Source of the DNA: Pseudanabaena cinerea FACHB-1277
Lineage (GTDB): Bacteria; Cyanobacteriota; Cyanobacteriia; Pseudanabaenales; Pseudanabaenaceae
DNA length: 24,000 nt
Assembly (NCBI RefSeq): GCF_014696345.1
Contig: NZ_JACJPY010000004.1
Coordinates: forward strand, 87,517 to 111,516
Reading direction: 5' to 3'
Part shown: in pieces, positions 3,770 through 20,199 of the stretch
Layout: each line of letters begins with the position of its first letter
Numbering within the stretch: the first letter of the stretch is position 1
Position numbers and translations under genes: made by a program
Notes under the pieces: model-generated
What the model was told of the DNA's origin: nothing
The model's database searches: none
Seen by the model: the letters and a program-made list of their open reading frames with translations, nothing else

Positions 3770-4480
3770 TTATTTTTGATTCATGGCGGTGCGATCGCAT
3801 AACCAAATGGTGTTACCTGTGATCAACCGCGATGGATATTGATTGACATCACCCTTGGGCGCAAGCACGGCATGGAGAGCCTTGGCCTTGGCAGCCCCCT
3901 CGACCATAAATAAAATTTCCTGTGCTTGATTGATCAATGGCACGGTCATGGTGATGCGGGGCTGTCCATCCTTACTGCCTACAGTAATTAGGCGATCGCT
4001 TACCTTTAGCGCGGCAGTATGGGGAAATAGCGAAGCCGTATGTCCATCATCACCCATGCCCAGCAAAATCAAATCAAACTGCGGGAATACCCCTGCTGCT
4101 ACTGCAAAAAATTCTTGAATATGCTGCTCATACTCTTCGGCGGCGATCGCAGGATCATCGGCATCGGTGGGAATGCCATGAATATTTGCCGCAGGGATAT
4201 CCACATGATCGAGCCAAGCTTTGCGGGTCATGCCTTCATTGCTCTGCGGGTCGGTCACAGGCACATAGCGCTCATCACCCCAAAATATATGCACCTTCGA
4301 CCAGTCCCAATTTTTAGTGGCAAACAATTCGTATAACACCTTGGGTGTGCTGCCCCCTGCGGCAACGATTGTAAACCTGCCTGACTTAGCGATCGCCTGC
4401 TCATAGGCAATTTGCGTCAATAACAGCGCTCTCGCCGCAATTTCTGAGCGATCGTTCCAAATTTCTACCTGTCTAGCCAT
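3770..4480 (-). CDS. pgl: 6-phosphogluconolactonase
   Basis: 236-aa ORF with motifs AAGGSTPK and LLGMGDDGHTASLFP, typical of the Pgl/NagB superfamily. Confidence 0.9.
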   Translation of the reverse strand: MARQVEIWNDRSEIAARALLLTQIAYEQAIAKSGRFTIVAAGGSTPKVLYELFATKNWDWSKVHIFWGDERYVPVTDPQSNEGMTRKAWLDHVDIPAANIHGIPTDADDPAIAAEEYEQHIQEFFAVAAGVFPQFDLILLGMGDDGHTASLFPHTAALKVSDRLITVGSKDGQPRITMTVPLINQAQEILFMVEGAAKAKALHAVLAPKGDVNQYPSRLITGNTIWLCDRTAMNQK

Positions 4481-4957: not shown

Positions 4958-6379
4958 ATGGCATCTACAAGAATTATTGATTTGTTACGCGGTGATTTAA
5001 CCATTGATCCTGATCAAAATCCCGATCATCTTTGCACCGTGCGGGGTTGGGTTCGCACCAAACGGGAAGGAAAGGAAATCGCATTTTTAGAAGTCAATGA
5101 TGGATCATCGTTACAGGGTTTGCAGATAGTTTTGTCTCCCACCCTTGACGACTATGAAGCTTTAATCAAACAGATCAATACGGGGGTATCGATCGCAGCC
5201 ACTGGCAAGCTAGTTGCATCTACGGGCAAGGGGCAGAAGGTGGAGATGCAAGCAAGGGAAATCACGGTTTTTGGTACTGCCGATCCTGAAACCTATCCTT
5301 TACAAAAGAAACGTCACTCTATTGAGTTTTTACGCACGATCGCCCACTTAAGACCTCGTACCAATATGTTTGGGGCTGTTTTTCGGGTACGCAATGCCTG
5401 TGCTTTTGCCGTGCATCAATTTTTTCAAGAGCGCGGCTTTTTGTGGGTACATACGCCAATCATCACGGCTAGTGACTGTGAGGGGGCAGGCGAGATGTTT
5501 GGCGTAACGACCCTCGATCTCCAAAAATTAGGGTTGGCGGGTAAACCTGTGGATTACAGCCAAGACTTTTTTGGTAAGCCTGCTTTTTTGACCGTTAGTG
5601 GTCAGCTAGAGGCAGAAATTATGGCAACTGCCTTTTCTAATGTCTATACCTTTGGTCCCACCTTTCGCGCTGAAAATTCCAATACTTCCCGCCATCTTGC
5701 CGAGTTTTGGATGATTGAGCCAGAGGTGGCTTTTTGTGACCTCGAAGGCGATGCTGATCTAGCGGAAGATTTTCTTAAATACATCTTCAATTATGTTTTA
5801 AAAACTTGCCCCGAAGATATGGAATTTTTCCAAGAACGGGTCAATGATCAGGTGATGGTCAATGCGCGGAAGATTATCGATGAGCAGTTTGAACGCATCT
5901 CTTATACTGAGGCGATCGCCATCCTTGAGAAATGCGATAAAAAGTTTGAGTTCCCTGTTTCATGGGGGCTGGATCTGCAATCGGAGCATGAAAGATTTCT
6001 AGCCGAAGAATATTTCCGTAAGCCTGTAATCGTGATGGATTATCCCTTGGGGATCAAGGCTTTTTATATGCGGGTGAATGATGATACAGCCAGCGATCGA
6101 CAAACGGTAAGGGCGATGGATATCCTTGCCCCTGGTGTGGGTGAAATTATTGGTGGTTCACAGCGTGAGGAGCGTCTAGATCTGCTAGAAGCCCGAATCC
6201 GCAGTGTGGGGCTAAATCCTGAAGATTACTGGTGGTATCTAGATCTACGCCGCTATGGTACGGTTCCCCATGCTGGCTTTGGACTTGGTTTTGAGCGTCT
6301 GGTGCAGTTCATCACAGGCATGGGCAATATCCGCGATGTCATTCCGTTTCCGCGCTTTCCTCAAAGTGCCGAATTTTAA
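4958..6379 (+). CDS. asnS: asparagine--tRNA ligase
   Basis: 473-aa ORF with class II motif 2 [21 protein letters not shown] and motif 3 GFGLGFERL. It has an N-terminal OB-fold anticodon-binding region. Confidence 0.95.
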
Positions 6380-6381
6380 GT

Positions 6382-6457
6382 GCGATCGCCGATCCTGTAG
6401 GGTGCGTTACATTTCATTAACGCACCTCATCTGATATTCAAAATTCACGCTTTACTA
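6382..6457 (+). repeat. REP/REPIN-like element family 1, copy 0 (right half degenerate, hairpin loop flipped)
   Basis: GCGATCGCCGATCCTGTAGGGTGCGTTA-CATTTCAT-TAACGCACCTCATCTGATATTCAAAAT matches copy A (10112-10206), except that the 8-nt loop is the reverse complement. Similarity decays after ~6445. Confidence 0.75.
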
Positions 6458-6480
6458 AGATTATTTAGGATTTCTAAAGT

Positions 6481-6877
6481 TTAGGCAACAGTTAAGACTG
6501 TCGGTAAGTTGCGAGGACGCTTTGCCCTCACTGCATCAAGATTAAGCTCTAGCTCTAATACCTCTTGATACAAAAACAAAATCGCGCTCAAAGCCTGATT
6601 TTGTGTTGATGCCGCCACATTTTCATCGATTGCTAAAAGTTAAAAAAGCATTAACTTCATCGCCGCCCATTTCGCTAGGATGGCGCTTGTTATGAAATAA
6701 AATAAATCGCCGAACCCATTGCACATAGGACTTTTCAGTTTGATAGGAGTAATGCTTAACTCGAATAGCATCCCTAACGCGATCAAGTAATTTGCGAGGC
6801 GGTGGCTCAGTCTGCCCATTTGGGGTAAATACAGATATCTGATTTTTTAGTATAGGCTTGGGTATGTTACTCAACAT
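6481..6877 (-). pseudogene. intI: integron-type tyrosine recombinase (IntI) remnant: N-terminal third only, with a frameshift
   Basis: The ORF at 6623-6877 encodes YSYQTEKSYVQWVRRFILFHNKRHP. After a frameshift near the T-run at ~6635-6640, the next frame reads [27 protein letters not shown]...[13 protein letters not shown] and stops at 6481. The catalytic C-terminal two-thirds is absent. Confidence 0.75.
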
Positions 6878-7117
6878 TTTGCACGATAAAACTCCATAGA
6901 GGGATATTACCCCGCAAAAAACTGAATATTACACTTTTTAATTGCTTTATCTAGCAAGTTGTGAGATATTAGGGTCATACAAGTATATATCCTGTAATTT
7001 ACAAGATAATATGTAGTTATACGGCATTAAATCCCCTATCTGAAATTCTCTTTTTCCAAAAGGCAGCAATGTAAATCTAAATGTGTAAAATTATTGACAG
7101 TTCTCTGAGGAAAAAGG

Positions 7118-9217
7118 ATGGAAATTAGTCAACTCAAGACTCTACTGGCAGATTCAGAGAACCCCAAATTAGAATTTAAGAGTCAATGGTATTGCAATAC
7201 AGATCAGCTTGACGATAAGGGCTGGGGAGAGTTTCTAAAGGATTTAATTACACTTGCAAATGGAAATTCAGGTTTTGTAGGTCAAACTGGATATTTAATA
7301 ATCGGTGCATCTGATGAAGATCCCAGAATTGGACAGCAACGGGGAATCTCTAATGTAGCTAGAAATGGAATGTTGTCTAATCTGCAAAAGCTACGTGAAA
7401 CAACACTTCGGAAACTTCGTGAAACTTGTAGCCCATCTCCTGCTGACATCGATCTGAGTTTTGTCGAAGTAGAAGGTAAGCATCTGCTTATTATTGAAGT
7501 TCCGCCTCCAGTTGATGCTGTCAAACTCGATCGTGATTTAAACACCAGAGGAATGAGATTTAAAAAGGGCACTGTTCTAATTCGTGTTGGGCAAGACGTT
7601 AGTGTGGCTGATCCAGCAGAGATAAATAACTTAAGAAAAGGGTATCAGGATACTTGGATTCAAACTCAACGAATGGTGCATAATTTACCACAACCCGATT
7701 ATGTAAACTTTATTGGTAGACAAGATGAGCTTGAGAAGCTTCGGAATTTGCTTAATCCCAGAGATCGTATATGGACAATTGTTATTGATGGAATAGGTGG
7801 GATCGGTAAATCTGCTTTAGCTTTGGAAATAGCACATCGATACTTAAACGAATACAATTTTATTCCTGAAGAAGAGCGATTTCAGTCAATTATTTGGATT
7901 TCAGCAAAAGATTCAATTTTAACTGCTGACGGGATCAAAAAGCGTTTTCAGGTAACCAACACCCTTAATGACATTTATAGTCAGATTTCTGTGGTTTTAG
8001 GAGAACAAGAAATTAGCCGCCATAACTTTAAGGAACAAGGTTTTTTAATCAATCGTGCATTGGGGGCAAGAAGAACTCTTCTAATCATTGATAATCTTGA
8101 GACAGTTGATGATGATCGCGTTAATGCTTTTGTTCGAGAACTTCCTAATCCCACAAAATGTATTGTTACTACCCGTCATCGTATTGATGTAGCAGATCCT
8201 ATTCGACTGTCTGCAATGCCTCGAAAAGATGCACTCTCACTAATTCAGCAAGAATGCGACAAGAAAAATGTTCGATTAGATAATTCGCAAATTGAGCTTC
8301 TGTATAAAAGGACGGCAGGAGTTCCCTTAGCTGTAGTTTGGAGTATTGCTCAAATAAGTTATCACGGCTTTGGAGTAGATCAGGTATTAAAACGCTTGGG
8401 TGATGCAAAAGGCGATATAGCCCGTTTCTGCTTTGAAAACGCTGTTCATCACATTCAAGATAAACCTGCTTATAAAATATTAGCTAGTCTGGCTTTATCT
8501 CCAAGATCGATGAGCCGACAAGAAGTAGGAACTGTTGCTGATTTGTCCGAGCTTGATCAAGATGAGGGGTTAGTGATCCTAGAACGCTTATCGCTAATTA
8601 ATAAGAAAGGTGGTCAATTTAGTTTATTACCTCTAGTTCAAGAGTATATCTTAACTAAGGTTAAAGAATTCCCTTTTACTGATTTGAGGCAATTGGTTAT
8701 TCGGTTCTCAGAAAACTATGCTCCTTCAGGTGCAGACTCGCTATCTGCAATTGAGCAATATTTTGGTTCAGAATTGATTACTCCATTAAAGATTGAAGTT
8801 GCAAAGAAGATTGTTGATCAAATGTGGGAATGGGATAGTCAGTGCGATGAAATAGGCGTGAGTTATTGTATTTCAGCTTTGGAGAAGTTGGCAATTGATA
8901 CGGCAATTGATGCCATAAGAGATATTGCGATGTATTCAAATGTTGCATCTCTGGCTGCGTGGATGTACTCCGCTGCTGCTGGCATATTGATTCATGCTGG
9001 CAGGTTAAGAGATTTAATAAATTTGAGCCTTTCCTATCAAAATTTTGATAGCCTTACTGTTGAATCCTTGAAGAAATTTGAGACTGACAAAGTTGTTCAA
9101 GAAATTGACATAGTGTTGGAGATTCAAAAAGAAAATAAATCAGAAATACTACAGCAGTTAAAAGATAAGTTATTGTCTTCAGAAATATATCCATCTTCTG
9201 GCGACCATGCCGTATAA
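7118..9217 (+). CDS. Schlafen/AlbA_2-like N-terminal domain fused to an NB-ARC-type STAND P-loop NTPase
   Basis: 699-aa ORF. The N-terminus ENPKLEFKSQWY...LANGNSG...GYLIIGASDED resembles the AlbA_2/Schlafen core. Also present are Walker A GIGGIGKSALA (nt ~7787-7813), Walker B LLIIDNLE, CIVTTRHR, GVPLAV (GLPL-like) and a winged-helix-like LSLINKKGGQFSLLPLVQEYI. The ~170-aa helical C-terminus is unassigned. Confidence 0.7.
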   Translation: MEISQLKTLLADSENPKLEFKSQWYCNTDQLDDKGWGEFLKDLITLANGNSGFVGQTGYLIIGASDEDPRIGQQRGISNVARNGMLSNLQKLRETTLRKLRETCSPSPADIDLSFVEVEGKHLLIIEVPPPVDAVKLDRDLNTRGMRFKKGTVLIRVGQDVSVADPAEINNLRKGYQDTWIQTQRMVHNLPQPDYVNFIGRQDELEKLRNLLNPRDRIWTIVIDGIGGIGKSALALEIAHRYLNEYNFIPEEERFQSIIWISAKDSILTADGIKKRFQVTNTLNDIYSQISVVLGEQEISRHNFKEQGFLINRALGARRTLLIIDNLETVDDDRVNAFVRELPNPTKCIVTTRHRIDVADPIRLSAMPRKDALSLIQQECDKKNVRLDNSQIELLYKRTAGVPLAVVWSIAQISYHGFGVDQVLKRLGDAKGDIARFCFENAVHHIQDKPAYKILASLALSPRSMSRQEVGTVADLSELDQDEGLVILERLSLINKKGGQFSLLPLVQEYILTKVKEFPFTDLRQLVIRFSENYAPSGADSLSAIEQYFGSELITPLKIEVAKKIVDQMWEWDSQCDEIGVSYCISALEKLAIDTAIDAIRDIAMYSNVASLAAWMYSAAAGILIHAGRLRDLINLSLSYQNFDSLTVESLKKFETDKVVQEIDIVLEIQKENKSEILQQLKDKLLSSEIYPSSGDHAV

Positions 9218-9331
9218 CAATCCCGTTGCACGCCGACCGTATCAATTTAGTCGGTCAAATCCGAAAGGTTACTAGCGGCGGGTGAACGGAGCCGTTAGGC
9301 TACAAGTCTAGGTAACGGAGCAAAAAAACTG

Positions 9332-9763
9332 ATGCCCAATGATATTGTGAAGTATGAGCCAGATGACGCTGGAAATATTGTGACTCATGCTCTACGACAA
9401 ATTTCTGAAAACTCAGAAATAGTTTTATCTGTCAAGGCAGTTAGCAATTGGATTACTGGTTTTACTTGCTACCTTAGCAACGAGGCTGGATTGTATCGAT
9501 CTCAAGAAGTCGATTTCAAAGAAACATTCAAAGATTTTAATCAGTATATTCGCCTATTCAATGCAGGATCTGATTTTCGTGCAAGATCTACCGCAAATTT
9601 TTGTAGACGAGTTCTTCATATGGAAGATTCAAAAACTAAACGCCATTTCATTATCCAGATTGTTAGCAGTTTTCGCCGCGATATGGGTAACTCAATAGAA
9701 AGATTTTCAGAGATTGAAGGACAAATTGTTAATGGATTTCTTGAAAACCCATTTGGGCGTTAA
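9332..9763 (+). CDS. hypothetical protein (143 aa)
   Basis: Clean ORF on the same strand as, and 114 nt downstream of, the STAND gene. The region is AT-rich and lacks HIP1. No recognisable motif. Confidence 0.45.
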   Translation: MPNDIVKYEPDDAGNIVTHALRQISENSEIVLSVKAVSNWITGFTCYLSNEAGLYRSQEVDFKETFKDFNQYIRLFNAGSDFRARSTANFCRRVLHMEDSKTKRHFIIQIVSSFRRDMGNSIERFSEIEGQIVNGFLENPFGR

Positions 9764-9795
9764 AATAAAGTTAATGTTTAAAATTTACTGCTGCT

Positions 9796-10149
9796 ATGCT
9801 CACTGCCTCTCGTACCGTGTCAGTTCCCTTATCTACTAATGCCGATGGTGTGATTTTGGTTGGCAACACTCGTGTAACCATTGATACAGTTGTAGGAAAT
9901 TACAAGCAAGGATTGTCACCTGAAGAAATTGTATCTCGCTACTCATCACTTAATCTATCAGATGTTTATAGCACTATTGCTTTTTATCTAAGCTATCAAC
10001 TAGAGGTTGAAGAATACCTAAAACAACGTCAGCGCATAGCTAAAGGAATTCGAGAAGAGAATCAACTACGGTTTAATTCTCAAGATTTGCGCGATCGCCT
10101 TCTTGCAAGTACGATCGCCGATCTTGTAGGGTGCGTTAATGAAATGTAA
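9796..10149 (+). CDS. DUF433-domain protein (antitoxin-like HTH)
   Basis: 117-aa ORF. GNTRVTIDTVVGNYKQGLSPEEIVSRYSSLNLSDVYSTIAFY fits the DUF433 pattern. The last ~11 codons and the stop lie inside REP copy A. Confidence 0.6.
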   Translation: MLTASRTVSVPLSTNADGVILVGNTRVTIDTVVGNYKQGLSPEEIVSRYSSLNLSDVYSTIAFYLSYQLEVEEYLKQRQRIAKGIREENQLRFNSQDLRDRLLASTIADLVGCVNEM

Positions 10150-10206
10150 CGCACCTCATCTGATATTCAAAATGCGTGCGTTACGCTGACGCTAACACAC
10201 CCTACA
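10112..10206 (+). repeat. REP/REPIN-like element family 1, copy A (full)
   Basis: Flank CGATCGCCGATCTT plus an 80-bp core (10126-10205): GTAGGGTGCGTTA-ATGAAATG-TAACGCACC-spacer-GTGCGTTA-CGCTGACGC-TAACACACCCTAC. Confidence 0.85.
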
Positions 10207-10227
10207 ACATTTCTATATTTCCGATGA

Positions 10228-10779
10228 TTAATCATCCCAAGAGCCTTGAGGTTTGGCTATACGTTCACCACTACCCCAATCCTTGGGATAGACACCTTGA
10301 GTAATGAACCGATGAATACTCGAATATTGCCAATCTTGAGGATTCTCACATAAACCATGCCTCACTGGATTATCATGAATATAATCGCAGTGAATCGCAA
10401 AATCTTTCTCATCACGAATTAAATGTTCCCAAAATCGGCGTTGCCAAAGATTGCTTTCCCCACGCTTCTCTCTTGACTGGGAAATATCACGATTTACTTC
10501 TAATAGCTTTCCATAATGTTTTGTGACGTAAGTTTTGATTAATCTTAATCGTACTGATAAATCACGATCATCAGGCGGTAAAGTCCACAAACAATGGAAA
10601 TGATCGGGCAATAGAACAAAAGCATCAATAGTCAAAGGATACTTCACCCTCACCTTTTCAATCGATTCCCTAAGTGCTTTACGAGCCACATCACAACATA
10701 ACCAAGGTTCACGCTGATAAGTAACCTGAGTAATGAAAAAAGTACCTCCCAATACATGAGATCTTCGATAGTTAGACAT
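10228..10779 (-). CDS. REP-associated tyrosine transposase (RAYT, IS200/IS605-like Y1 HUH transposase)
   Basis: HUH motif in LLPDHFHCLW and a catalytic-Tyr motif in CDYIHDNPVRHGL. It is flanked on both sides by full REP copies A and B. The start is set at MSNYRR (10779), because the longer ORF to 10851 reads through REP B. Confidence 0.8.
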   Translation of the reverse strand: MSNYRRSHVLGGTFFITQVTYQREPWLCCDVARKALRESIEKVRVKYPLTIDAFVLLPDHFHCLWTLPPDDRDLSVRLRLIKTYVTKHYGKLLEVNRDISQSREKRGESNLWQRRFWEHLIRDEKDFAIHCDYIHDNPVRHGLCENPQDWQYSSIHRFITQGVYPKDWGSGERIAKPQGSWDD

Positions 10780-10812
10780 TTGCGTCTGAAGATAACTGAC
10801 ATAGTTAATATA

Positions 10813-10903
10813 CGCCGATCTTGTAGGGTGCGTTAATGAAATGTAACGCACCTCATCTAATGGTCAAAATTCGTGCGTTACGCTGACGCTAACACACCCT
10901 ACA
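10813..10903 (+). repeat. REP/REPIN-like element family 1, copy B (full)
   Basis: The core at 10823-10902 is nearly identical to copy A. Confidence 0.85.
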
Positions 10904-10983
10904 TTTGTTGTACCTTAAACGGGATAAGTTCTTAAGGCTACTTATTGGAACTGAATCACAGCAAAATTTGATACAATAGCTAC

Positions 10984-11256
10984 ATGAAATTTGAGTGGGA
11001 TAAGAACAAAGCGGATCGTAACTTTTCAAAGCACGGAGTTTCCTTCGATGAGGCAAAAACCGTCTTCGATGATCCCCTTTATGTTGACTTTTACGATTCA
11101 CGCCACTCGGACAAAGAAGATCGATTCCTTATTGTTGGTGAATCTAGTCAAGGACGTTTGCTGATTGTTTCGTATACTGAGAGAAGAAACTCAATTCGCA
11201 TTATTAGTACAAGAGAAGTCACAAGATCGGAGCGTGAAGCATATGAAGAAGGTTGA
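10984..11256 (+). CDS. brnT: BrnT-family (DUF497) toxin
   Basis: 90-aa ORF. MKFEWDKNKADRNFSKHGVSFDEAKTVFDDP is the BrnT/DUF497 signature. Confidence 0.8.
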   Translation: MKFEWDKNKADRNFSKHGVSFDEAKTVFDDPLYVDFYDSRHSDKEDRFLIVGESSQGRLLIVSYTERRNSIRIISTREVTRSEREAYEEG

Positions 11257-11506
11257 GTTAGAGATGGAAGACGATCTTCTAGATGAATATGATCTAAAAA
11301 AATTGCGCGTGAGAAGGCTAGGCTCAGGGCGAAAGAGTTTTGGCACTGCAATGGTACGTCTAGATCCTGATGTAGCAGAAATATTTTCTAGTGCAGATGC
11401 AGTTAATGAAGCCCTAAGATTTTTGATCAAAGTGACGCGGCAAAATCAGCCACCCATCCTCACAACGCAGCCTAACACAGCGTTGGAACCGACTACCGAA
11501 AGTTAG
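11243..11506 (+). CDS. brnA: BrnA-family antitoxin
   Basis: It overlaps the brnT stop by 14 nt. The LDPDVAEIF...VNEALRFLI motif is typical of BrnA (ex-DUF4415). The start chosen is the internal ATG at 11243. Confidence 0.65.
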   Translation: MKKVELEMEDDLLDEYDLKKLRVRRLGSGRKSFGTAMVRLDPDVAEIFSSADAVNEALRFLIKVTRQNQPPILTTQPNTALEPTTES

Positions 11507-11516
11507 TCTAAAAAAT

Positions 11517-11612
11517 GCGATCGCCGATCTTATAGGGTGCGTTAATGAAATGTAACGCGCCTTATCTAATGGTCAAAATGCGTGCGTTACGCTGACGCTA
11601 ACACACCCTACA
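11517..11612 (+). repeat. REP/REPIN-like element family 1, copy C (full; GTAG changed to ATAG)
   Basis: The core at 11532-11611 is aligned by eye to copies A, B and D. Confidence 0.85.
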
Positions 11613-11667
11613 TTTCCTAGTCGGCTATAATACTGGACAAGGCAATGATCTAGGAAAACTTATAATC

Positions 11668-11943
11668 ATGGCAGTGCGTCAACCCCGCTATAGCAAAGAA
11701 GAATTTGCCCAACGTGGCGATCTAATTTATCAAACGCAGATACGTCCACAGGTCGAATCAGGTAATCACGGCAAAATAGTTGCTATTGATATTGAGACTG
11801 GAGATTTTGAGATAGCCAATGATACAATGACCGCCACTCGCCGCCTTCGAGAACGTTTGCCCGACTCCCAAACTTGGGTAATCCGAATCGGCTATCGTGC
11901 AGTTCATCGTTTCGGTGCGCGGAGCCTGAAAGAAAAGATATGA
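11668..11943 (+). CDS. small conserved partner protein of a retropepsin-like protease
   Basis: 91-aa ORF whose stop overlaps the next start (ATGA at 11940-11943). No family name could be confirmed. Confidence 0.5.
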   Translation: MAVRQPRYSKEEFAQRGDLIYQTQIRPQVESGNHGKIVAIDIETGDFEIANDTMTATRRLRERLPDSQTWVIRIGYRAVHRFGARSLKEKI

Positions 11944-12326
11944 TGCAAGGATACGTCAATAAGAATTGTGAAGCCACGATTCTTGTAGTCGTTCGTAACA
12001 ATGCCAAACTAAAATCTATTAACACTGTCATTGATACAGGATTTACTGGTTTCCTAAGCCTCCCGAACAACATCATTACTGAACTGGGTTTGCCATGGAG
12101 TTATCGCGATCGCGGAACATTAGGAGACGGTAGTGAGGTTTTGTTTGATATCTATGACGCAGTAGCTATTTGGGATGGCAAAGCTAAAGAGATTGAAGTA
12201 AATTCAGCAGAAACAGATCCATTGATTGGGATGAGTATGCTCCGTGGGTATCGACTGCAAGTAGATACAATTGAGGGCGGATTGGTAATAATTACAGACT
12301 TGTCAGAGCGATCGCCGATCTTGTAG
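11940..12326 (+). CDS. retropepsin-like (clan AA) aspartic protease
   Basis: VIDTGFTGFLSLP contains the D-T-G catalytic triplet in the usual hydrophobic context. Start taken at MMQGYV (11940). The stop codon TAG lies inside REP copy D (cttgTAGggtg). Confidence 0.6.
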   Translation: MMQGYVNKNCEATILVVVRNNAKLKSINTVIDTGFTGFLSLPNNIITELGLPWSYRDRGTLGDGSEVLFDIYDAVAIWDGKAKEIEVNSAETDPLIGMSMLRGYRLQVDTIEGGLVIITDLSERSPIL

Positions 12327-12403
12327 GGTGCGTTAATGAAATGTAACGCACCTTATCTAATGTTCAAGATTCGTGCGTTACGCTGACGCTAACACACCCT
12401 ACA
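12308..12403 (+). repeat. REP/REPIN-like element family 1, copy D (full)
   Basis: Core at 12323-12402. Confidence 0.85.
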
Positions 12404-12423
12404 ACTATAACTAAGATTAAGCC

Positions 12424-12687
12424 ATGTTAGCTACAGAACCTTCTACAAAGATAAATGTTAAACAGACATTGATTCAAGAAATCGATCAGACTTCAGAGGC
12501 TCTTTTAAGCGAAGTTCTAGACTTCCTTTTGTTTATTAGAGCTAAACATACAGATGTTGTTGAATTAGTAGAAGATTATGATGATTCCAAGGAGAAAATC
12601 TTAGAAGATCTGAGGCATTCCTTAGAAGATGCTAAAGCAGGTAGAGTTCACGATATTTCTGAACTTTGGGATGGGATTGATGTCTAG
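12424..12687 (+). CDS. putative antitoxin (87 aa)
   Basis: Acidic small ORF whose stop overlaps the downstream toxin start (ATG 12680, TAG 12685-12687). Confidence 0.5.
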   Translation: MLATEPSTKINVKQTLIQEIDQTSEALLSEVLDFLLFIRAKHTDVVELVEDYDDSKEKILEDLRHSLEDAKAGRVHDISELWDGIDV

Positions 12688-13021
12688 CGATAATCATAAA
12701 TTGAAGATTCAGTTTACAGATGTTTTTAAGCGTCAAGTTCGAGGTTTGGCAAAGCGCTATAAAAGGATTAAATTAGATATTCAACCAGTTTTAGATCAAC
12801 TTCAGAGTGGTGACTTAGTTGGCGATCAGATCCAAGGTACTGGCTTTACAGTATTTAAGGTTCGCATCAAAAATAGCGATATTCAGAAGGGTAAAAGCGG
12901 GGGCTATAGGTTGATTTACTATATTAAAACCTCTGAGAATATTTTATGTGTTTTTTGTCAAAGCACCGAATTTTATTCAGAAAAGTCAGGTGCGTTATAT
13001 TGTATTAACGCACCCTACTGA
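12680..13021 (+). CDS. RelE/ParE-HigB-like toxin, C-terminus replaced by a REP half-element
   Basis: KGKSGGYRLIYYIKTSENI is a RelE/Gp49-type signature. From ~12969 onward the reading frame runs through REP copy E and stops at the TGA following CCCTAC. Confidence 0.6.
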   Translation: MSSDNHKLKIQFTDVFKRQVRGLAKRYKRIKLDIQPVLDQLQSGDLVGDQIQGTGFTVFKVRIKNSDIQKGKSGGYRLIYYIKTSENILCVFCQSTEFYSEKSGALYCINAPY

Positions 13022-13033
13022 ATTGGCGATCGC
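12969..13033 (-). repeat. REP family 1, copy E (half element, inverted, variant loop)
   Basis: AATTTTATTCAGAAAAGTCAGGTGCGTTA-TATTGTAT-TAACGCACCCTAC...GGCGATCGC shares its spacer with copy G. Confidence 0.7.
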
Positions 13034-13040
13034 ACTATAA

Positions 13041-13424
13041 TCATTCAGCAGTAATGTTATTAGACTTTTGAAGGTCAATCAGGTCAGCTACAGAAGCGCT
13101 GATCACAGATATCTTTCTGACTGGATTAATGCGAGCATTTAGCCATTTTTGAAATGACTTTTGACTCTCTCCCGAAGGTTGACCTAAAATCAAATTTTTA
13201 GTGCTGATATCTTCATCTAGTTGCTCCCAGTGAATTCCTTCACCTTGACTAATAGTACGCCAGTCATTACGTTCTTCTTGGGAAGCATTAAGCAGTCTTG
13301 GATACCATGCCAGTGGAACAGAAATTGTCCGTCCATCTGATAGATCGACTGATAAAGTATCGTCTGTGATGGTTACGTCTTGAATTGTTGGTATTTCAAG
13401 GAGTTCAATCGTTAAAGAAGTCAT
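13041..13424 (-). CDS. DUF2442-domain protein
   Basis: 127-aa ORF. LSVDLSDGRTISVPLAWYPRL...GIHWEQLDEDIS fits DUF2442. It overlaps the upstream DUF4160 gene by 20 nt. Confidence 0.7.
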   Translation of the reverse strand: MTSLTIELLEIPTIQDVTITDDTLSVDLSDGRTISVPLAWYPRLLNASQEERNDWRTISQGEGIHWEQLDEDISTKNLILGQPSGESQKSFQKWLNARINPVRKISVISASVADLIDLQKSNNITAE

Positions 13425-13641
13425 TCCATCCTGCCAGCAGTTGCTCTTGATGTTCTTGAATTAGTTTTTGAATATGATTAATTTCTGTGCGGCTAAATCC
13501 TTTGTTTTTCTGTAGGCGGATTGGGGTAAGCCAAAATTTAGCTTGGTCTTGATCTCGCTCAATATGTATGTGCGGTGGTTCATCGCGATCGCCTGCATAG
13601 CAGAAAAAGCGGTAAGCACCGACTCTTAATAATGTTGGCAT
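13405..13641 (-). CDS. DUF4160-domain protein
   Basis: 78-aa ORF. YRFFCYAGDRDEPPHIHIERD fits the DUF4160 signature. Confidence 0.7.
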   Translation of the reverse strand: MPTLLRVGAYRFFCYAGDRDEPPHIHIERDQDQAKFWLTPIRLQKNKGFSRTEINHIQKLIQEHQEQLLAGWNDFFND

Positions 13642-13760
13642 TTGAGGATATAGGTTTATAGCTAAACATTAGCTGATATCAATTTGACCGTCAATATCTA
13701 GTCACCCTATCATCAATAAGTTTACCATGCGCCAAAACAACTAGTTATCGTCAACTATTG

Positions 13761-13808
13761 GGTACATTCTATTTCATTAATACACCGTACATGATTGGCG
13801 AAGGTCGC
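13761..13808 (-). repeat. REP family 1, degenerate half copy
   Basis: GGTACATTCTATTTCATTAATACACCGTACATGATTGGCGAAGGTCGC aligns to the hairpin-plus-flank of the family with about 10 substitutions. Confidence 0.45.
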
Positions 13809-13822
13809 ACAGATTTTATCTA

Positions 13823-13916
13823 GTAGCGTGAGTTAGCAGAGCGTAACGCACAAGTAATTAGCATTAAATAAGGTGCGTTACATTTCATTAACGCACCCTA
13901 CAAGATCGGCGATCGC
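13823..13916 (-). repeat. REP/REPIN-like element family 1, copy F (full length, inverted, distal half diverged)
   Basis: It ends with GGTGCGTTACATTTCATTAACGCACCCTACAAGATCGGCGATCGC. The proximal part GTAGCGTGAGTTAGCAGAGCGTAACGCAC is a diverged second hairpin. Confidence 0.75.
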
Positions 13917-13940
13917 ATTTATAGTTAGTTAGATTCTTTT

Positions 13941-14189
13941 TTAAAGTCGATTATTAACATTTAAAATAGTCAGACCAATAATTTCATCATTTTGATAGCG
14001 GATTAAAATATTTTCATCGGTGAGTTCACTATCATCGGCAGCAAGGGCGGGTTGATGAAAATTGATGTATAACACATCAGCTTCGACATCATAAAATGTC
14101 CAAGTATTCTTCTTGGGTAGAGTTTTAATTGCATTAGCTAAGTTAAGATAGCTAGGAATTTTGAGGGGAGTTAAAGGGGTTGTGACCAT
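13941..14189 (-). CDS. DUF2283-domain protein (antitoxin-like)
   Basis: 82-aa ORF. FYDVEADVLYINF...ILIRYQNDEIIGLTILN fits DUF2283. Confidence 0.6.
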   Translation of the reverse strand: MVTTPLTPLKIPSYLNLANAIKTLPKKNTWTFYDVEADVLYINFHQPALAADDSELTDENILIRYQNDEIIGLTILNVNNRL

Positions 14190-14482
14190 ACTTCTTTACG
14201 TTTGTTGAGAGAATTGATACGTTTAGTAATATAGGCGGTGATGACAAACCCGTCTTCTTGTGCTTCTTTATAAATTGTAACCAAATGCTTATTATCACTT
14301 AGCAACTTGATCGCTAAAAGCTCACCATCATTGCCTTCTAAAATTCTATCAGGATTTTCTATGGTTTGGATGATTTCGGGCTGAAGGTGCAGAAGTTCGG
14401 GATGCCCTTCGGTTATGTGTTGCCATCTTTCTTCAGTTAGGCGAATGGTTAGTCCGCTTTTGGCGGATGCGATCAAGGGCAT
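14171..14482 (-). CDS. small toxin-like partner protein (103 aa), family not recognised
   Basis: It overlaps the downstream DUF2283 gene by 19 nt. This is a two-gene architecture like the neighbouring TA pairs. Confidence 0.45.
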   Translation of the reverse strand: MPLIASAKSGLTIRLTEERWQHITEGHPELLHLQPEIIQTIENPDRILEGNDGELLAIKLLSDNKHLVTIYKEAQEDGFVITAYITKRINSLNKRKEVWSQPL

Positions 14483-14570
14483 AGGGGTTGTCGAGTAAGA
14501 GGGTTGCTAAGTTATCAATCTAAATCTAAATTGCCCCCTCATCATCAAATTTACTATTCGGTAACTCATT

Positions 14571-14632
14571 CAATTTTATTCAGAAAAATAAGGTGCGTTA
14601 CATTTCATTAACGCACCCTACAAGATCGGCGG
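14571..14632 (-). repeat. REP family 1, copy G (half element, inverted)
   Basis: AATTTTATTCAGAAAAATAAGGTGCGTTACATTTCATTAACGCACCCTACAAGATCGGCGG. It abuts the stop codon of the 14633-15031 gene. Confidence 0.75.
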
Positions 14633-15031
14633 TTACTGACAAGCACCTATAATTCTTGGATCAATAACTATTCCACTAATACGCCTATTTAAAGTAAGAT
14701 AACCTTGGAAGTTACCTTCTTCATCAACAATAATTGGAGGATTTGTTGCCCTAGGGTTGCAGGCACTAACATCTGAAAACTTACTTCCCCAGTTTCCAAA
14801 TCTGTTATATATACTTGTATCAGAAAATCGGCTTCCAAAGTCACCGAATCTATTAGACAAAGAGTTATCATCAAATTTGTTGCAATTAATACATCCAAGA
14901 AAAACAATACCTCGCCTTCCATTTTCTAAAGAACCATAGATTAGTAAAGGTGATTCAGCAAAAGAATTATCTACAAGCAAGAAAAAGCTAGAAAGCAAAG
15001 AAAAAAAAGACAGTTTTTTATGTATTTTCAT
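14633..15031 (-). CDS. secreted 4-Cys protein with duplicated NRFG-x-(F/W)GS(R/K)FSD-x-S motif
   Basis: 132-aa ORF with an N-terminal signal-peptide-like MKIHKKLSFFSLLSSFFLLVDNSFA. It carries the tandem motifs NRFGDFGSRFSDTS and NRFGNWGSKFSDVS and four Cys residues. Very AT-rich. Confidence 0.55.
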   Translation of the reverse strand: MKIHKKLSFFSLLSSFFLLVDNSFAESPLLIYGSLENGRRGIVFLGCINCNKFDDNSLSNRFGDFGSRFSDTSIYNRFGNWGSKFSDVSACNPRATNPPIIVDEEGNFQGYLTLNRRISGIVIDPRIIGACQ

Positions 15032-15109
15032 ATATTTTAAATGTTAAATGTGCCTAACACCAAACAAATTCTTGATTTTGGAGCTTTTATAATGTTGAAA
15101 TATAAGAGT

Positions 15110-15736
15110 TTATTTTTTGAATTTTCTGTACTCATCCCTACGAAAGATGTAATCAGTATGACTAGGAGTAATATTCCAAATAGAAAAAATAATTTCTTCT
15201 TCGTTAAATCCCTTCGCTTCAAAGAATCTGATTTTCTTTTTTAGGTCTGTACTTGTAGAATCATTTTCTTGATAAGACTTCTCTCCTTCCTTGACTCCGC
15301 TTTCTCTAGCTTTTCTTAAGTCTTCTTTTGTTGCAGTCATTCCACTGGAAAAATAAAGTTCTGCTGCTTTCCCCATACCGTATGTCCAGCCATAAACAAA
15401 ACTAGAGCCGACTAATCCTCCTGCTCCTGGCAAACCAATTTTGAATAAAGCTAGAATTGTCTGCTGTCCAATAATACCACCGCCTATTACTGCTACGATT
15501 TCACCTACAGATTTTTCGCTAATTTTGTAGCCATAAACATTTCCAATAGCTCTAACCATAAGATACTGAACGGGCGTAATTGTAACAATATCAGCAAATG
15601 GAACAGGAGCTAATGCTAGGGTTGCACCAGCAGCACCAGCTACTACCCTAATCTGAGAACAAATCTTTTTTCTCTCATCATCATTACGGTCTGAGAAATC
15701 TCCGTTAATATATTCATATATATCGTCTAAGTTCAT
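15110..15736 (-). CDS. DUF697-like glycine-rich membrane protein
   Basis: 208-aa ORF. ALAPVPFADIVTITPVQYLMVRAIGNVYG and LPGAGGLVGSSFVYGWTYGMGKAA match the DUF697/YcjF-type pattern as I recall it. The C-terminal tail is charged. Confidence 0.55.
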   Translation of the reverse strand: MNLDDIYEYINGDFSDRNDDERKKICSQIRVVAGAAGATLALAPVPFADIVTITPVQYLMVRAIGNVYGYKISEKSVGEIVAVIGGGIIGQQTILALFKIGLPGAGGLVGSSFVYGWTYGMGKAAELYFSSGMTATKEDLRKARESGVKEGEKSYQENDSTSTDLKKKIRFFEAKGFNEEEIIFSIWNITPSHTDYIFRRDEYRKFKK

Positions 15737-15752
15737 AACGCTTTAGGTTAAG

Positions 15753-16175
15753 TTATCTCATGAGTGTACATGTGTAATAAAGTGCATTTTGAAAAAGTGA
15801 TGTAGATGGTCGGGTAAAACTGCTACTTACTTTTTCTATATTTTGTATTACTTGCCCACGTTGCCAAATCGTAGACTTAATAAGTCGGTACTCGTTTTGA
15901 TTACAATTAACTTGATAGACATTGTATTCAGCACGAATTCTGTCAAGAGATTCACCATAAATAGGTACTCGGAACTCTCGATTATCTAAATTGCTTATTT
16001 TTTGTACATCAAGAATGTTTATGTAGTAACACATATTACGTTCTTGATGAAATGAATCAACTTTAGCTGTAACAAAGTCAATCTTAGGACATACATTGTT
16101 TTGGGCATTGGTCTCAATTGGCAACGAAAAAGATAAGTTAGTGAGTAAAAAGATGTAGCCTATAATTTTTTTCAC
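15753..16175 (-). CDS. secreted 4-Cys protein (140 aa), unknown family
   Basis: Signal-peptide-like MKKIIGYIFLLTNLSFSLPIETNA and four Cys residues. It is the first gene of the AT-rich operon, with a 16-nt gap to the next gene. Confidence 0.5.
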   Translation of the reverse strand: MKKIIGYIFLLTNLSFSLPIETNAQNNVCPKIDFVTAKVDSFHQERNMCYYINILDVQKISNLDNREFRVPIYGESLDRIRAEYNVYQVNCNQNEYRLIKSTIWQRGQVIQNIEKVSSSFTRPSTSLFQNALYYTCTLMR

Positions 16176-16265
16176 TGTTTAAGTCTGTGTATTTTTTATT
16201 TGTTTGTATAAAGTATATTAAATGAATTTATTGAGATTTAAAAGCGGAAAAAGACGGAATGCTAA

Positions 16266-16393
16266 AAATTTACGCTCATATAGGAATTTGGGTGAAAGAC
16301 CTACTTTATTAAAAAGTCACACTTTGTCGCCGCAACGGTTTAAGCCAGATCGTTTAATTGGCTTCACCTGCTTACCCATATGAGCGAAAATTT
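16266..16393. repeat. 19-bp imperfect inverted repeats bracketing a ~90-bp structured segment
   Basis: AAATTTACGCTCATATAGG (16266-16284) pairs with CCCATATGAGCGAAAATTT (16375-16393) at 17/19 positions. There is an internal hairpin AAGCCA-n11-TGGCTT. Confidence 0.5.
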
Positions 16394-16400
16394 AATTTAA

Positions 16401-16434
16401 GTCGGAAAAAGGCAAAAAATACGGTTATAGTCGG
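16401..16434 (+). repeat. ~34-bp direct repeat, copy 1 (CGGAAAAAGGCAAAAAATACGGTTATAGTCGG)
   Basis: A related copy lies at 17167-17201, and a partial copy GCGGAAAAAGACGG at 16244-16257. The two long copies bracket the vapBC module. Confidence 0.5.
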
Positions 16435-16484
16435 AGCGATATGAGTTAGCTAGACAGCGAGCTGATCAGTGAATAAAACCTGAA

Positions 16485-16874
16485 TCATGGAATTGTTGCT
16501 ATATCTGCATAGCCTAAAATTTTTGTATCCATAGTTACTAAAGGGCAGTTGTAAACTTTAGCTGTCGCTATGATAATTTGATCAGCAGGATCACGATGGA
16601 AATTTACCAACTGAGTGGATGCAATGGCAATTTGAGGGGTTAGGTCTAGTAATTGTACGGCTGGGTAGGACAAAGCTTTTTCAAACCACTCTGAAATTTC
16701 ACAAGGAAGCGTCAAGCGATTGTATTCGACTAATTTTGCAATTTCCCAACAGGAAATGACGCTAATGCCAATAGTTAAAGACTCGTGGTCTTCAATGGCT
16801 ATTTTGGCAGTTTGGCTAAGTCTTGGATCGCCATGTACCCACCAAATCCAGATATGTGTGTCTAAAATAATCAT
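16485..16874 (-). CDS. vapC: VapC-family PIN-domain toxin
   Basis: MIILDTHIWIWW is a PIN N-terminus with the conserved Asp. The start overlaps the antitoxin stop (ATGA at 16871-16874). Confidence 0.8.
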   Translation of the reverse strand: MIILDTHIWIWWVHGDPRLSQTAKIAIEDHESLTIGISVISCWEIAKLVEYNRLTLPCEISEWFEKALSYPAVQLLDLTPQIAIASTQLVNFHRDPADQIIIATAKVYNCPLVTMDTKILGYADIATIP

Positions 16875-17074
16875 ACTATGACTTCCCAATCGGACATTGC
16901 TACAGGTTCCATAGGATCGATGTATTCGATTGGTAAGCCGCGCAGGGGATATTTTTTAGTTGTAGATGGCGTATGGTGGGTCAAGCCAAATACTTGCAAT
17001 AGCTTCAAGGTCTTTTCTAGCTCAGATTCAGACATCCGATTAAGTTCATCAATGAGCAACTCTTTTACAGTCAT
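16871..17074 (-). CDS. VapB-position antitoxin (67 aa)
   Basis: Small ORF immediately upstream of vapC and translationally coupled to it. Confidence 0.6.
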   Translation of the reverse strand: MTVKELLIDELNRMSESELEKTLKLLQVFGLTHHTPSTTKKYPLRGLPIEYIDPMEPVAMSDWEVIV

Positions 17075-17227: not shown

Positions 17228-17740
17228 ATGGATGTTAAAGAATTGTTGAAATTTGTTGATGAGAGTATGTTTGCGAAGACGGGGAAAAGACTTAATGATT
17301 TGCAGCGTCAGGTGATTGAGGGAGCGCTGAATCATCGGAAATATGTGGATATTGCGGAATCTTTTGAGAAAAGCGAAGGTCATGTTAAAGATACTGGTTA
17401 TGAGCTTCTACAAATACTTTCAGAGATTTTTGAAGAACCAGTTAAGAAAGGGAACCTTAAATCTGTTTTAGAGAGACAGAGAAGTAATGTAACTGTTAAT
17501 GTTGGGGATGGGAATGTCGGAAACTTTGGACATATCAATAATTGCGTGAATTTTAATAGCGATCGCCTATCACCTAAACCCAATCAAGTTCCATTAGAAA
17601 AAACTGACACTCTGCAAGAAAAGCAAATAGCGAAAATCAATAAACTGCGCGATCGCGGTTTAAATGATGAAGAAATTGCCGAACTTTTAGAGATTCCTTT
17701 AGAGTCAATTACAGCTATAAATTTAGAAGAATCGGCTTAG
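17228..17740 (+). CDS. stand-alone HTH protein resembling the N-terminal module of cyanobacterial STAND/NACHT-WD40 conflict-system proteins
   Basis: LNDLQRQVIEGALNHRKYVDIAESFEKSEGHVKDTGYELLQILSEIF is a sigma70-region-4/LuxR-like HTH. A second HTH-like KINKLRDRGLNDEEIAELLEI lies at the C-terminus. Start taken at MDVKELL (17228). Confidence 0.5.
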   Translation: MDVKELLKFVDESMFAKTGKRLNDLQRQVIEGALNHRKYVDIAESFEKSEGHVKDTGYELLQILSEIFEEPVKKGNLKSVLERQRSNVTVNVGDGNVGNFGHINNCVNFNSDRLSPKPNQVPLEKTDTLQEKQIAKINKLRDRGLNDEEIAELLEIPLESITAINLEESA

Positions 17741-17765: not shown

Positions 17766-18197
17766 TTACACATTGCGCGATCGCCTAGGAAATATATCAA
17801 AAGCCAACTGCGAACGGTAAAAGCACACATCAAACTCAATAAAAAAGTTTAGCTGACCTAAAATAAGTGGTGGATCGTTAGATTTAGCCCAAGCAAAAGC
17901 CAAAATAACTGGTGGAAAGTCATCAATTTGCGCTATCACAGCTAACCCCTTTGCTTCCACTGGCGCAAGATTACCTGATAGGGGAATTGAGAGAGCTTTT
18001 GATCTTCCCAGACAGCCCCTAATTCTAAGCCAAGAGCATAGGGCATAACATTTAGGCTCGCTCCCGTATCTAAATAATCCAAAAACTTCCAAAGTGCGAT
18101 CGCCATAACTCAAAGCAATAGGCACGCAAGGAAAGACATTCGTTTCACCCTTTGAATTTCTTCGCTCAATAAAAGGAAATCGCTTAGGAATTGACAT
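17766..18197 (-). CDS. hypothetical protein, possibly a degenerate retropepsin-like fold
   Basis: 143-aa ORF overlapping the upstream small ORF by 14 nt. Its size and partner architecture mirror 11668-12326, but the expected D-(T/S)-G position reads R-Y-G. Confidence 0.4.
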   Translation of the reverse strand: MSIPKRFPFIERRNSKGETNVFPCVPIALSYGDRTLEVFGLFRYGSEPKCYALCSWLRIRGCLGRSKALSIPLSGNLAPVEAKGLAVIAQIDDFPPVILAFAWAKSNDPPLILGQLNFFIEFDVCFYRSQLAFDIFPRRSRNV

Positions 18198-18465: not shown

Positions 18466-18592
18466 CAATTAGCATTAAGTGCTACACCTTTCGTGATCGC
18501 CTATCACCCAAACCCAATCAAGTTCCATTAGAAAAGCCAGATTCTCAAAGAGAGAAACAAATAGCTAAAGTTAAGAAATTTCGCGATCGCGG
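18466..18592 (+). pseudogene. gene remnants: copy of the 17750-17785 segment fused at a HIP1-like site to a copy of 17559-17658
   Basis: 18493-18592 translates DRLSPKPNQVPLEKPDSQREKQIAKVKKFRDRGL, compared with DRLSPKPNQVPLEKTDTLQEKQIAKINKLRDRGL in the intact gene. There is no in-frame ATG after the upstream stop at 18450-18452. Confidence 0.6.
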
Positions 18593-18631
18593 CTTACAAC
18601 GCTTTGCGCTCAAACCCAAACCAAAAGAAAT

Positions 18632-20018: not shown

Positions 20019-20195
20019 TTAGAGTCTATTTGAAAAGTTTTGATCCCCCTCAATCCCCCTTGCAAAGGGAGACTTTGAAATCTTTCCCCCCTTTCGTAAG
20101 TCGCCCTGTACACACAAGTTATTTGCTATTGCAAACGTAGCTAGAGAGACTTGTGTGTAACACCGTAGCTTTCGTAAGGGAGGCTAGGGGGGATC
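20019..20195. repeat. MITE-like element, copy 2, carrying a nested 68-bp insertion
   Basis: Same ends and internal hairpins as 2116-2220. The extra segment 20101-20168 is flanked by a duplicated CTTTCGTAAG (20091-20100 and 20169-20178). Confidence 0.65.
20101..20168. mobile_element. 68-bp nested miniature insertion with 11-bp perfect inverted repeats
   Basis: TACACACAAGT (20109-20119) and ACTTGTGTGTA (20149-20159). A 10-bp direct duplication of the host-element sequence lies on both sides. Confidence 0.55.
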
Positions 20196-20199
20196 AGTG

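Follow-up and report, generated by a model that had tools for sequence, protein, structure and literature searches.

A stretch of 24,000 nucleotides (nt) from Pseudanabaena cinerea FACHB-1277 (contig NZ_JACJPY010000004.1, positions 87,517 to 111,516; the whole stretch is called the window here) carries, behind the asparagine--tRNA ligase gene asnS, what is very probably a decaying chromosomal integron. Its integrase gene, intI, was cut at a REPIN, an inverted pair of repetitive extragenic palindromic (REP) units, and the same island holds a separate system of REPINs and their REP-associated tyrosine transposase (RAYT, TnpA_REP). Within 5 kb, intI, the second gene cassette and one attC recombination site all end at or are interrupted by REPINs. 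The left boundary of the island is formed by the core gene asnS (4958-6379, plus strand, an open reading frame (ORF) of 473 amino acids (aa), stop codon 6377-6379), which is directly followed by a truncated REPIN termed REP copy 0 (6380-6456, plus strand) and then by the intI pseudogene (6457-6877, minus strand).

The intI pseudogene comprises residues 1-143 of an integron integrase of about 343 aa. It is made up of two minus-strand ORFs, 6877..6623 (84 aa) and 6618..6481 (45 aa, in another frame), which when joined match the Pfam family Phage_int_SAM_4 at 3.9e-32. A first-pass annotation, made from the letters alone, had recognized here the N-terminal part of an IntI-type recombinase with a frameshift near 6635-6640, ending at 6481 and lacking the whole catalytic domain, and most of this description stands. 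The frame change can be read from the sequence as a 2-nt deletion at about 6637/6638 (relatives ACT CAT TTG, window ACT T TTA), and an in-frame 6-nt deletion lies near 6555. The truncation at a REP copy was also placed correctly, but not the end point at 6481 with a gap of about 25 nt: the codon at 6481-6483 is a TAA in frame, in place of the GAA (Glu) of relatives, the translation '...PTVLTVA*TLEILNNL' keeps matching relatives (e.g., P0002 and P0003) past this codon, and the DNA match to the intI genes of two related loci, L010 and L013, extends to 6456/6457, from where the sequence is REP-derived. Because the homology runs on past the stop at 6481, the end of the remnant is placed at 6457, with no spacer to REP copy 0. 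About 200 residues (about 600 bp) of intI are gone together with the catalytic domain. The homology stops at residue 143, and both the IntI-specific additional domain (between patches II and III) and the catalytic R, H-x-x-R and Y are absent from the window copy, while relatives have HTFRHSFATHLL...TMIYTHV. As far as can be read from these features, the window copy is a pseudogene that would yield no functional integrase, and the point lesions (the 2-nt deletion and the nonsense codon) would show that intI was, or became, non-functional. A promoter scan of 6380-7200 gave nothing above shuffle expectation.

The assignment of the remnant to the integron integrases is based on profile comparisons. 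The joined remnant scores 128 bits against the NCBIfam model TIGR02249 'integron integrase' (profile positions 1-104 of 315), compared with 19 bits for XerD and 14 bits for XerC. An origin from an XerC/XerD-type or phage tyrosine recombinase could be considered, since the SAM-like N-terminal domain is common to many tyrosine recombinases and the absence of the additional domain leaves no check on the remnant itself. Because this domain lies in the deleted part, membership in the IntI family was argued from the relatives. The closest intact relative, a 343-aa gene on a metagenome contig (L133), is 85% identical to the remnant, with 58 of the first 60 residues identical; its product matches TIGR02249 in one stretch (472 bits, profile positions 1-314 of 315), whereas XerC and XerD give only about 145 bits, below their cut-offs. 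The frameshifted intI genes of L001 and L013, after reconstruction, reach 423 and 409 bits on TIGR02249; both contain the HxxR and Y boxes and the additional-domain motif ALxKKYPNAxxxWxWQY(V/I)FPS, of which L133 has a variant form. The IntI relatives of this clade fall short of the IntI1 equivalog cut-off (NF011946: 332 vs 435 bits). With a conserved attI site and attC-bounded cassettes adjoining the gene here and in six relatives, the XerC/XerD or phage origin is left with a practically negligible chance.

A different reading would take the 84-aa SAM-like ORF as a retained DNA-binding protein, for example a regulator. The best 120 database matches to the remnant are all 84-231 aa long, and the ORF has retained its start codon ATG and does not differ among several assemblies. 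The strains that share it are 99.9-100% identical, however, so this conservation is uninformative on selection. The short homologs vary in length and end point, and those whose DNA was read turned out to be frameshifted full-length genes (L001, L013) or an independent truncation (L010), while for many others the gene runs off the end of a contig 1-3 kb long. Moreover, the 84-aa ORF ends inside the SAM-like domain, at the frameshift, and intact 343-aa relatives exist, so that a retained regulator is given only a very small probability. Within this clade of cyanobacteria, intI seems to decay very often, even though L133, L134, and L136 have intact copies. Full-length IntI-like proteins were abundant in a search of 1.8 billion proteins (query P0009), at no more than 58% identity, in a database whose clustering at 50% hides close relatives.

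The L133 integron, which is intact, occupies another chromosomal locus in another cyanobacterium. Between window 6701-7022 and L133 1246-1560, attI and the first ~55 intI codons are about 98% identical, and the rest of intI about 80%; this mosaic suggests recombination within the integron platform. A break point shared with the remnant in L010, or a hot spot for such breaks, was considered and rejected: the L010 remnant runs about 50 nt further, is decayed, and has a different neighbor, ahcY.

The integron platform is preserved next to the remnant, which faces away from the plus-strand genes. The intI/cassette geometry noted in the first-pass annotation is supported by a conserved attI and a canonical attC-bounded cassette. 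The attI region (6878-7022, plus strand) lies beside intI, is divergently oriented, and has a GTTRRRY crossover. It is conserved in seven loci (the window, L133, L134, L136, L010, L013, and L001) up to TAGTTA(T/G)(A/G)C, right after which all of them diverge. From this shared sequence followed by complete divergence, the crossover box was placed at GTTATAC (7016-7022), with recombination between G7016 and T7017. The first cassette (7017-9294, plus strand) extends from this crossover to the R' box of an attC and is, at 2.3 kb, unusually large. Its ORF (7118-9217) encodes a 699-aa protein with AlbA_2 (Schlafen-like) and NB-ARC STAND NTPase domains (Pfam). This architecture suggests a putative defense gene; PADLOC gave no match for the 699-aa protein.

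The canonical attC at the end of this cassette (9205-9304, plus strand) has the R'' box GTATAAC (9212-9218), which overlaps the stop codon, and the R' box GTTAGGC (9294-9300). Sites of this kind were searched for with a covariance model (R1) and half-site hidden Markov models (HMMs). The array beside the intI of L001, which is 76% identical to the remnant, consists of repeats of 86-100 nt with TAAC...GTTA ends, and window positions 9208-9305 align with them. In the resulting family structure, six pairs covary, and R and L stems and bulges are present. The window site scores 62.3 bits (E 1.9e-12) against R1, a value that is partly self-referential, the model having been trained on 13 sites, namely 11 attC of L001, the window site and one site of the sister strain L002. 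Untrained attC sites were found by R1 beside intI relatives in L013, L010, L133, L134, and L160, and also in L045 and L092. Besides 9205-9304, R1 detected no further full attC in the window. A home-made scan for inverted AAC...GTT boxes missed the real attC and gave noise.

The second cassette (9295-10109, plus strand) is truncated. It retains a 143-aa ORF (9332-9763) and a DUF433 gene starting at 9796, without the DUF5615 partner and without an attC. The cassette is intact in L002, where it ends in an attC (6390-6487), and in L003, a contig 99.9% identical to the window, it runs into DUF5615 up to the contig end. Compared with these two, the break at 10109/10110 coincides to the nucleotide with the left border of REPIN 1. 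The cassette upstream of the one with the 143-aa ORF also differs between strains, being the 699-aa gene in the window and a DUF2281-PIN cassette in L002; this difference would fit past shuffling, without proving it.

A complete arrangement of REPINs and RAYT, or 'REPtron' (10110-10903), begins at this break, inside the integron array. REPIN 1 (10110-10206, plus strand; DNA fold of -20.8 kcal/mol, z -4.3) and REPIN 2 (10806-10903, plus strand) enclose the RAYT gene (10228-10779, minus strand, 183 aa), which thus lies on the strand opposite to the cassettes. The RAYT protein scores 185 bits against NCBIfam NF047646 (cut-off 80) and matches Pfam Y1_Tnp (Y1/HUH) at 7e-6. The same order of attC, REPIN and antisense RAYT (81% aa identity) is seen in Argonema antarcticum (L092, 6365-7344). 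The REP unit found in every copy has the form T-GTAG-GGTGCGTTA-N8-TAACGCACC; a full copy consists of two inverted REP units, measures about 97 nt, and forms one long hairpin. The inverted unit pairs lie at 10126/10193, 10823/10890, 11532/11599, and 12323/12390. A scan for the unit gave 18 matches against 0.26 expected, all within 6397-14621 apart from a two-mismatch match at 930, which is probably due to chance. About 13 REP units were counted in the window, all of them within 8 kb of the RAYT gene, and besides the two REPINs flanking RAYT about eight further REP or REPIN copies lie between 6380 and 14640. REP copy 0 and REPIN 3 (11515-11612) are treated below; others are REPIN 4 (12306-12403, plus strand), a single REP unit between convergent genes (12985-13036, minus strand), REPIN 5 with a degenerate second unit (13823-13926, minus strand), and another single unit (14588-14640, minus strand). 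REPINs in direct orientation throughout the island are 82-92% identical. The octamer HIP1 (GCGATCGC), which is frequent throughout the window (e.g., 6382-6389 and 10091-10098), makes up the outermost left part of every REPIN (GCGATCGCCGATC).

Two proposals had been made in the first-pass annotation for the link between repeats and integron, namely that REPINs colonized the array or that recombination sites of the array evolved into REPINs, and it had treated the run of plus-strand genes as the array. A reading along the second line would regard the repeats as the integron's own attC sites, or as derivatives of them, delimiting a cassette array that spans all of these plus-strand genes. Indeed, the repeats stand just past stop codons at distances of about 700 bp, are oriented like the upstream gene and fold into long imperfect hairpins, and, as in chromosomal integrons, modules resembling toxin-antitoxin systems lie between them. 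The canonical attC at 9205-9304, however, has a different sequence, and model R1 reported none of the REPINs even with filters off and E values up to 10. The repeats have the GTAG head and the simple palindrome of RAYT substrates; the polarity of their arms (GTTA...TAAC) is opposite to that of attC (AAC...GTT); they flank a cognate RAYT gene, and their orientation flips at about 13 kb. In addition, one REPIN lies inside an attC.

The distribution of the repeat bears on the same point. In a scan of one genome per species, the REP core TAGGGTGCGTTA-N8-TAACGCAC was found at at least 119 loci, mostly once per locus, in dozens of cyanobacterial genera including Nostoc, Anabaena, Microcystis, Coleofasciculus, Okeania, and Pseudanabaena, and also in a few records from Desulfobacterales, Geobacteraceae, Thiotrichales, Pontibacterium, and Rodentibacter. 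This spread is unusually broad for a REP family. Only six of these loci carry attC sites or half-sites (about 95% are without attC), two carry intI fragments, and five or six carry RAYT homologs; in all six loci with an attC or half-site, the REP lies about 30-190 nt away, beside rather than inside the attC. Because of the GTAG palindromes, the cognate RAYT and the occurrence across genera mostly away from attC, the repeats are considered to be neither attC sites nor attC-derived, and it is highly improbable that they delimit an array of their own. In their arrangement, the repeats and the transposase gene follow the textbook layout of a REPIN/RAYT system (PMC3116915; PMC8266576). Of the two earlier proposals, it is the colonization of the array by REPINs that agrees with the data: RAYT lies inside, the second cassette is cut, and one attC is split. 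The array defined by attC sites is also short, with one intact and one split attC, which is less than the whole run of plus-strand genes.

The split attC is the second place at which a REPIN interrupts the integron. REPIN 3 (11515-11612, plus strand) sits in the terminal loop of an attC at 11470-11643 and has, by inserting there, divided this site into two halves. The left half (11470-11514, plus strand) contains the R'' box GCCTAAC, L'' and part of the loop, and ends the module of BrnT and a 113-aa ORF (10984-11506). It is matched by the left-half HMM at 11469-11494 with an E value of 9.5e-5, better than the left half of the genuine attC, and resembles the attC of L002 in sequence. The decayed right half (11613-11643, plus strand) retains an L' remnant, TAGTCGG, and an R' box in which GTTAGGC is degraded to ACAAGGC (11637-11643). 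The sequences flanking REPIN 3, CCGACTACCGAAA (11489-11501) and TTTCCTAGTCGG (11613-11624), are mutually complementary, and after removal of REPIN 3 in silico the flanks fold like an attC, with the stems GCCT/AGGC, CAG/CTG, and CCGACTA/TAGTCGG. Boxes resembling an attC were also seen by eye around REPIN 4 (12306-12403); neither half-site HMM reports them, and they are not claimed as a site.

The third contact between REPIN and integron is the junction at which intI ends. REP copy 0 abuts the asnS stop codon, as had been noted early. It retains the first GTAG-headed REP unit (GTAG at 6397, hairpin 6401-6426) and the spacer, whereas of the second unit only a degenerate inner arm, ACGCTTTAC (6447-6455), remains, and the loop and the outer arm are gone. 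Read on the intI strand, the junction is GTAAAGCGTGAATTTTGA..., a degenerate version of the GTAACGCACGAATTTTGA of full repeats. The loop of copy 0 (within 6401-6426) is CATTTCAT, compared with ATGAAATG in all other copies of the same GTAG orientation; it is thus inverted while the repeat is otherwise collinear, which points to a rearrangement inside the palindrome. The spacer of copy 0 matches that of REPIN 1, unlike the REPIN located at the same site in L002.

From these observations, a sequence of events can be proposed. A REPIN would already have been present right after the asnS stop codon, as it still is in the sister strain, and a single deletion would have extended from the loop of its second hairpin to intI codon 143, with a loss of about 600 bp. 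This deletion would have removed the IntI-specific additional domain and the catalytic residues. REPIN-associated events may also have taken away the end of the second cassette and disrupted one attC. Without an integrase the cassettes would be frozen, and the locus would be heading for the state of an integrase-less attC cluster (CALIN), which appears to have been reached already in the sister strain. Candidate causes of the deletion are aberrant cleavage and joining by RAYT, replication stalled at the hairpin or slippage, and illegitimate recombination.

Alternatively, a REPIN could have inserted at intI codon 143 and then recombined with the asnS-proximal REPIN, with deletion of the 3' part of intI. 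The direct-orientation REPINs, with their identity of 82-92%, are similar enough for RecA-dependent recombination, and a REPIN has entered the attC, which likewise forms a hairpin. If two complete REPINs had recombined, however, one complete copy should have remained, and in copy 0 the second unit has lost both its loop and its outer arm, with the caveat that the missing arm may have decayed later. For this reason a one-step illegitimate deletion is favored on present sequence evidence, and the two-step route is regarded as unlikely.

The comparison of strains and species supplies the background for this proposal. The intI remnant is shared by five contigs (L003-L007) whose identity to the window is 99.9-100%. 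In the sister strain L002, the AsnS protein is the same, and the DNA agrees with that of the window at 99.7% up to position 6427. In L002, asnS is followed by a full REPIN, the DUF2281-PIN cassette and the 143aa-DUF433-DUF5615 cassette, each with an attC, and then by a REPIN, a TPR gene and an amidohydrolase gene; neither intI nor the 699-aa gene was found at this locus. A residual attI was sought in L002 between the REPIN and the first cassette (4293-4435), where only TAGGGATATT and ATAGTTA are shared, too weak a resemblance to call. AsnS is 86-89% identical to AsnS of Pseudanabaena, and relatives share the gene order ComFB-DUF3493-pgl-69aa-asnS on the left. This order is kept in three related Pseudanabaena genomes, where other genes follow asnS and no integron is present; one of the three has the amidohydrolase gene there. 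The close intI relatives adjoin ahcY, phycobilisome genes, an HlyD-like gene, or R3H/LdpA genes, and no asnS-linked intI was found among 80 metagenome loci. The GC content is 0.34-0.42 inside the island and 0.43-0.50 in the flanks.

Since related genomes lack an integron after asnS and the intI relatives are found at other loci, the integron is best described, from these comparisons, as a lineage-specific insert in a variable low-GC island and not as an old sedentary one. The suggestion that the window preserves a sedentary chromosomal integron, recognizable by a constant locus across a species or genus or by a large array (more than 19 attC sites in the definition of PMC4889954), is therefore not supported: there is none after asnS in the three Pseudanabaena genomes, L002 has no intI, the relatives lie elsewhere, and the window has one intact and one split attC.

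Several points weigh against the reading of a decaying integron cut at a REPIN. An intact intI at the asnS locus was found in none of the strains and related genomes examined, and the ancestral state with a full REPIN and a full intI is an assumption. The asnS-proximal REPINs of the window and L002 differ in loop orientation and spacer, and the polarity between the two alleles is not inferable. At the split attC, the right-half HMM is not significant at 11613-11643, a half-site that is too decayed for it. Finally, with one intact attC in the window, the genes between 11.7 and 18 kb are not demonstrable as cassettes.

The contacts between the two systems raise a more general idea. The RAYT/REPIN system might insert preferentially where integrons form single-stranded hairpins (at attC loops and cassette boundaries), its own hairpins might then become deletion end points, and REPIN invasion might be a recurrent route of intI loss toward CALINs in cyanobacteria. 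Hints in this direction are the three integron parts affected within 5 kb, the RAYT after an attC in Argonema, and the six of six attC-bearing REP loci described above. This extension is tentative and, as a whole, rather doubtful.

Other features of the island complete the picture. A toxin-antitoxin-like run occupies 10984-16889 and includes BrnT with the 113-aa ORF, DUF2281-like and ParE-like genes, DUF2442, DUF2283 with PBECR2, and PIN. These modules lie on the plus strand at first and on the minus strand from 13041, and each is followed by a REP in its own orientation; a former cassette is demonstrable for the BrnT module only. Near the right edge of the low-GC island, a 143-aa protein encoded at 17766-18197 (minus strand) matches the candidate defense family PDC-M52B at 8.8e-40. 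Two repeat pairs are unrelated to the REPIN: one of about 100 nt near the right island edge (17548-17662 and 18466-18596), and one of 70-90 nt with CCCCCT/GGGGG motifs, located one on each side of the island (2132-2220 and 20030-20196).

The elements of this locus belong to known kinds. Pseudogenes account for roughly one in three of the intI genes in genomes (PMC2426708). CALINs, some of them with nearby intI pseudogenes, have been described, Cyanobacteria are among the integron-bearing phyla, and the origin of CALINs was named as an open point (PMC4889954). As in such cases, a frameshift, a stop codon and a large deletion have inactivated the integrase here, attI and the cassettes are still present, and L002 keeps attC cassettes without intI. 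In contrast to the usual pseudo-integrons and CALINs, the end point of the deletion can be placed in the window at a specific nucleotide inside a REPIN, and the remnant allele and an intI-less allele coexist in one species. Compared with the integrases of class 1-5 and Vibrio-type integrons (IntI1, VchIntIA), the same domain order with a SAM-like N-terminal domain is found; the intact relatives have the additional-domain motif, the HxxR...Y boxes and a divergent attI, and their attC sites have the R''/L''/L'/R' boxes and bulged bases. Unlike these systems, the relatives form a separate cyanobacterial clade, and the window copy is without the whole catalytic half.

On the repeat side, REPINs have been defined (PMC3116915), the GTAG tetranucleotide at one palindrome end is part of the definition of REPs (PMC3733652; PMC8266576), GTAG REP families are known in cyanobacteria (PMC3733652), and REPs clustered around tnpA_REP were described in Marinomonas, together with the REPtron layout (PMC8266576). 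The window system resembles REPtrons in that its RAYT passes the NCBIfam equivalog and its GTAG-headed palindromes form inverted doublets that flank RAYT. It differs from the described ones in its position inside an integron array, antisense to the cassettes, and in that its REPINs are break points of integron parts. The usual description of REPIN/RAYT systems is of lineage-specific elements that are passed on vertically, whereas the REP core of the window spans dozens of genera.

Mobile elements within attC hairpins also have precedents. Elements of the IS1111-attC group target attC sites. Group IIC-attC introns do so as well (PMC3001079), and site-specific target selection by IS1111/IS110-type elements is treated in a paper that also mentions attC and REP (PMC11187229). 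Like these elements, REPIN 3 lies within an attC hairpin (11515-11612 in 11470-11643), and both kinds of element use folded single-stranded DNA. Unlike their specific targeting of attC, only one split attC was found here, and REPs elsewhere lie beside attC sites, at distances of 30-135 nt. No description of REPINs or RAYT within integrons, of a REPtron in a cassette array or of a REPIN in an attC loop was found in the searchable literature.

The locus is a well-documented case of known kinds of elements and not a new system; as a single well-resolved example, it leaves the knowledge of either system unchanged. Its value lies in a nucleotide-level view of the death of an integron, with a remnant allele and an integrase-free allele at the same REPIN in one species, and it represents a natural intermediate between a complete integron and a CALIN. 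Should REPINs prove to be associated with integrons systematically, this would connect two systems, both of which act on folded single-stranded DNA.

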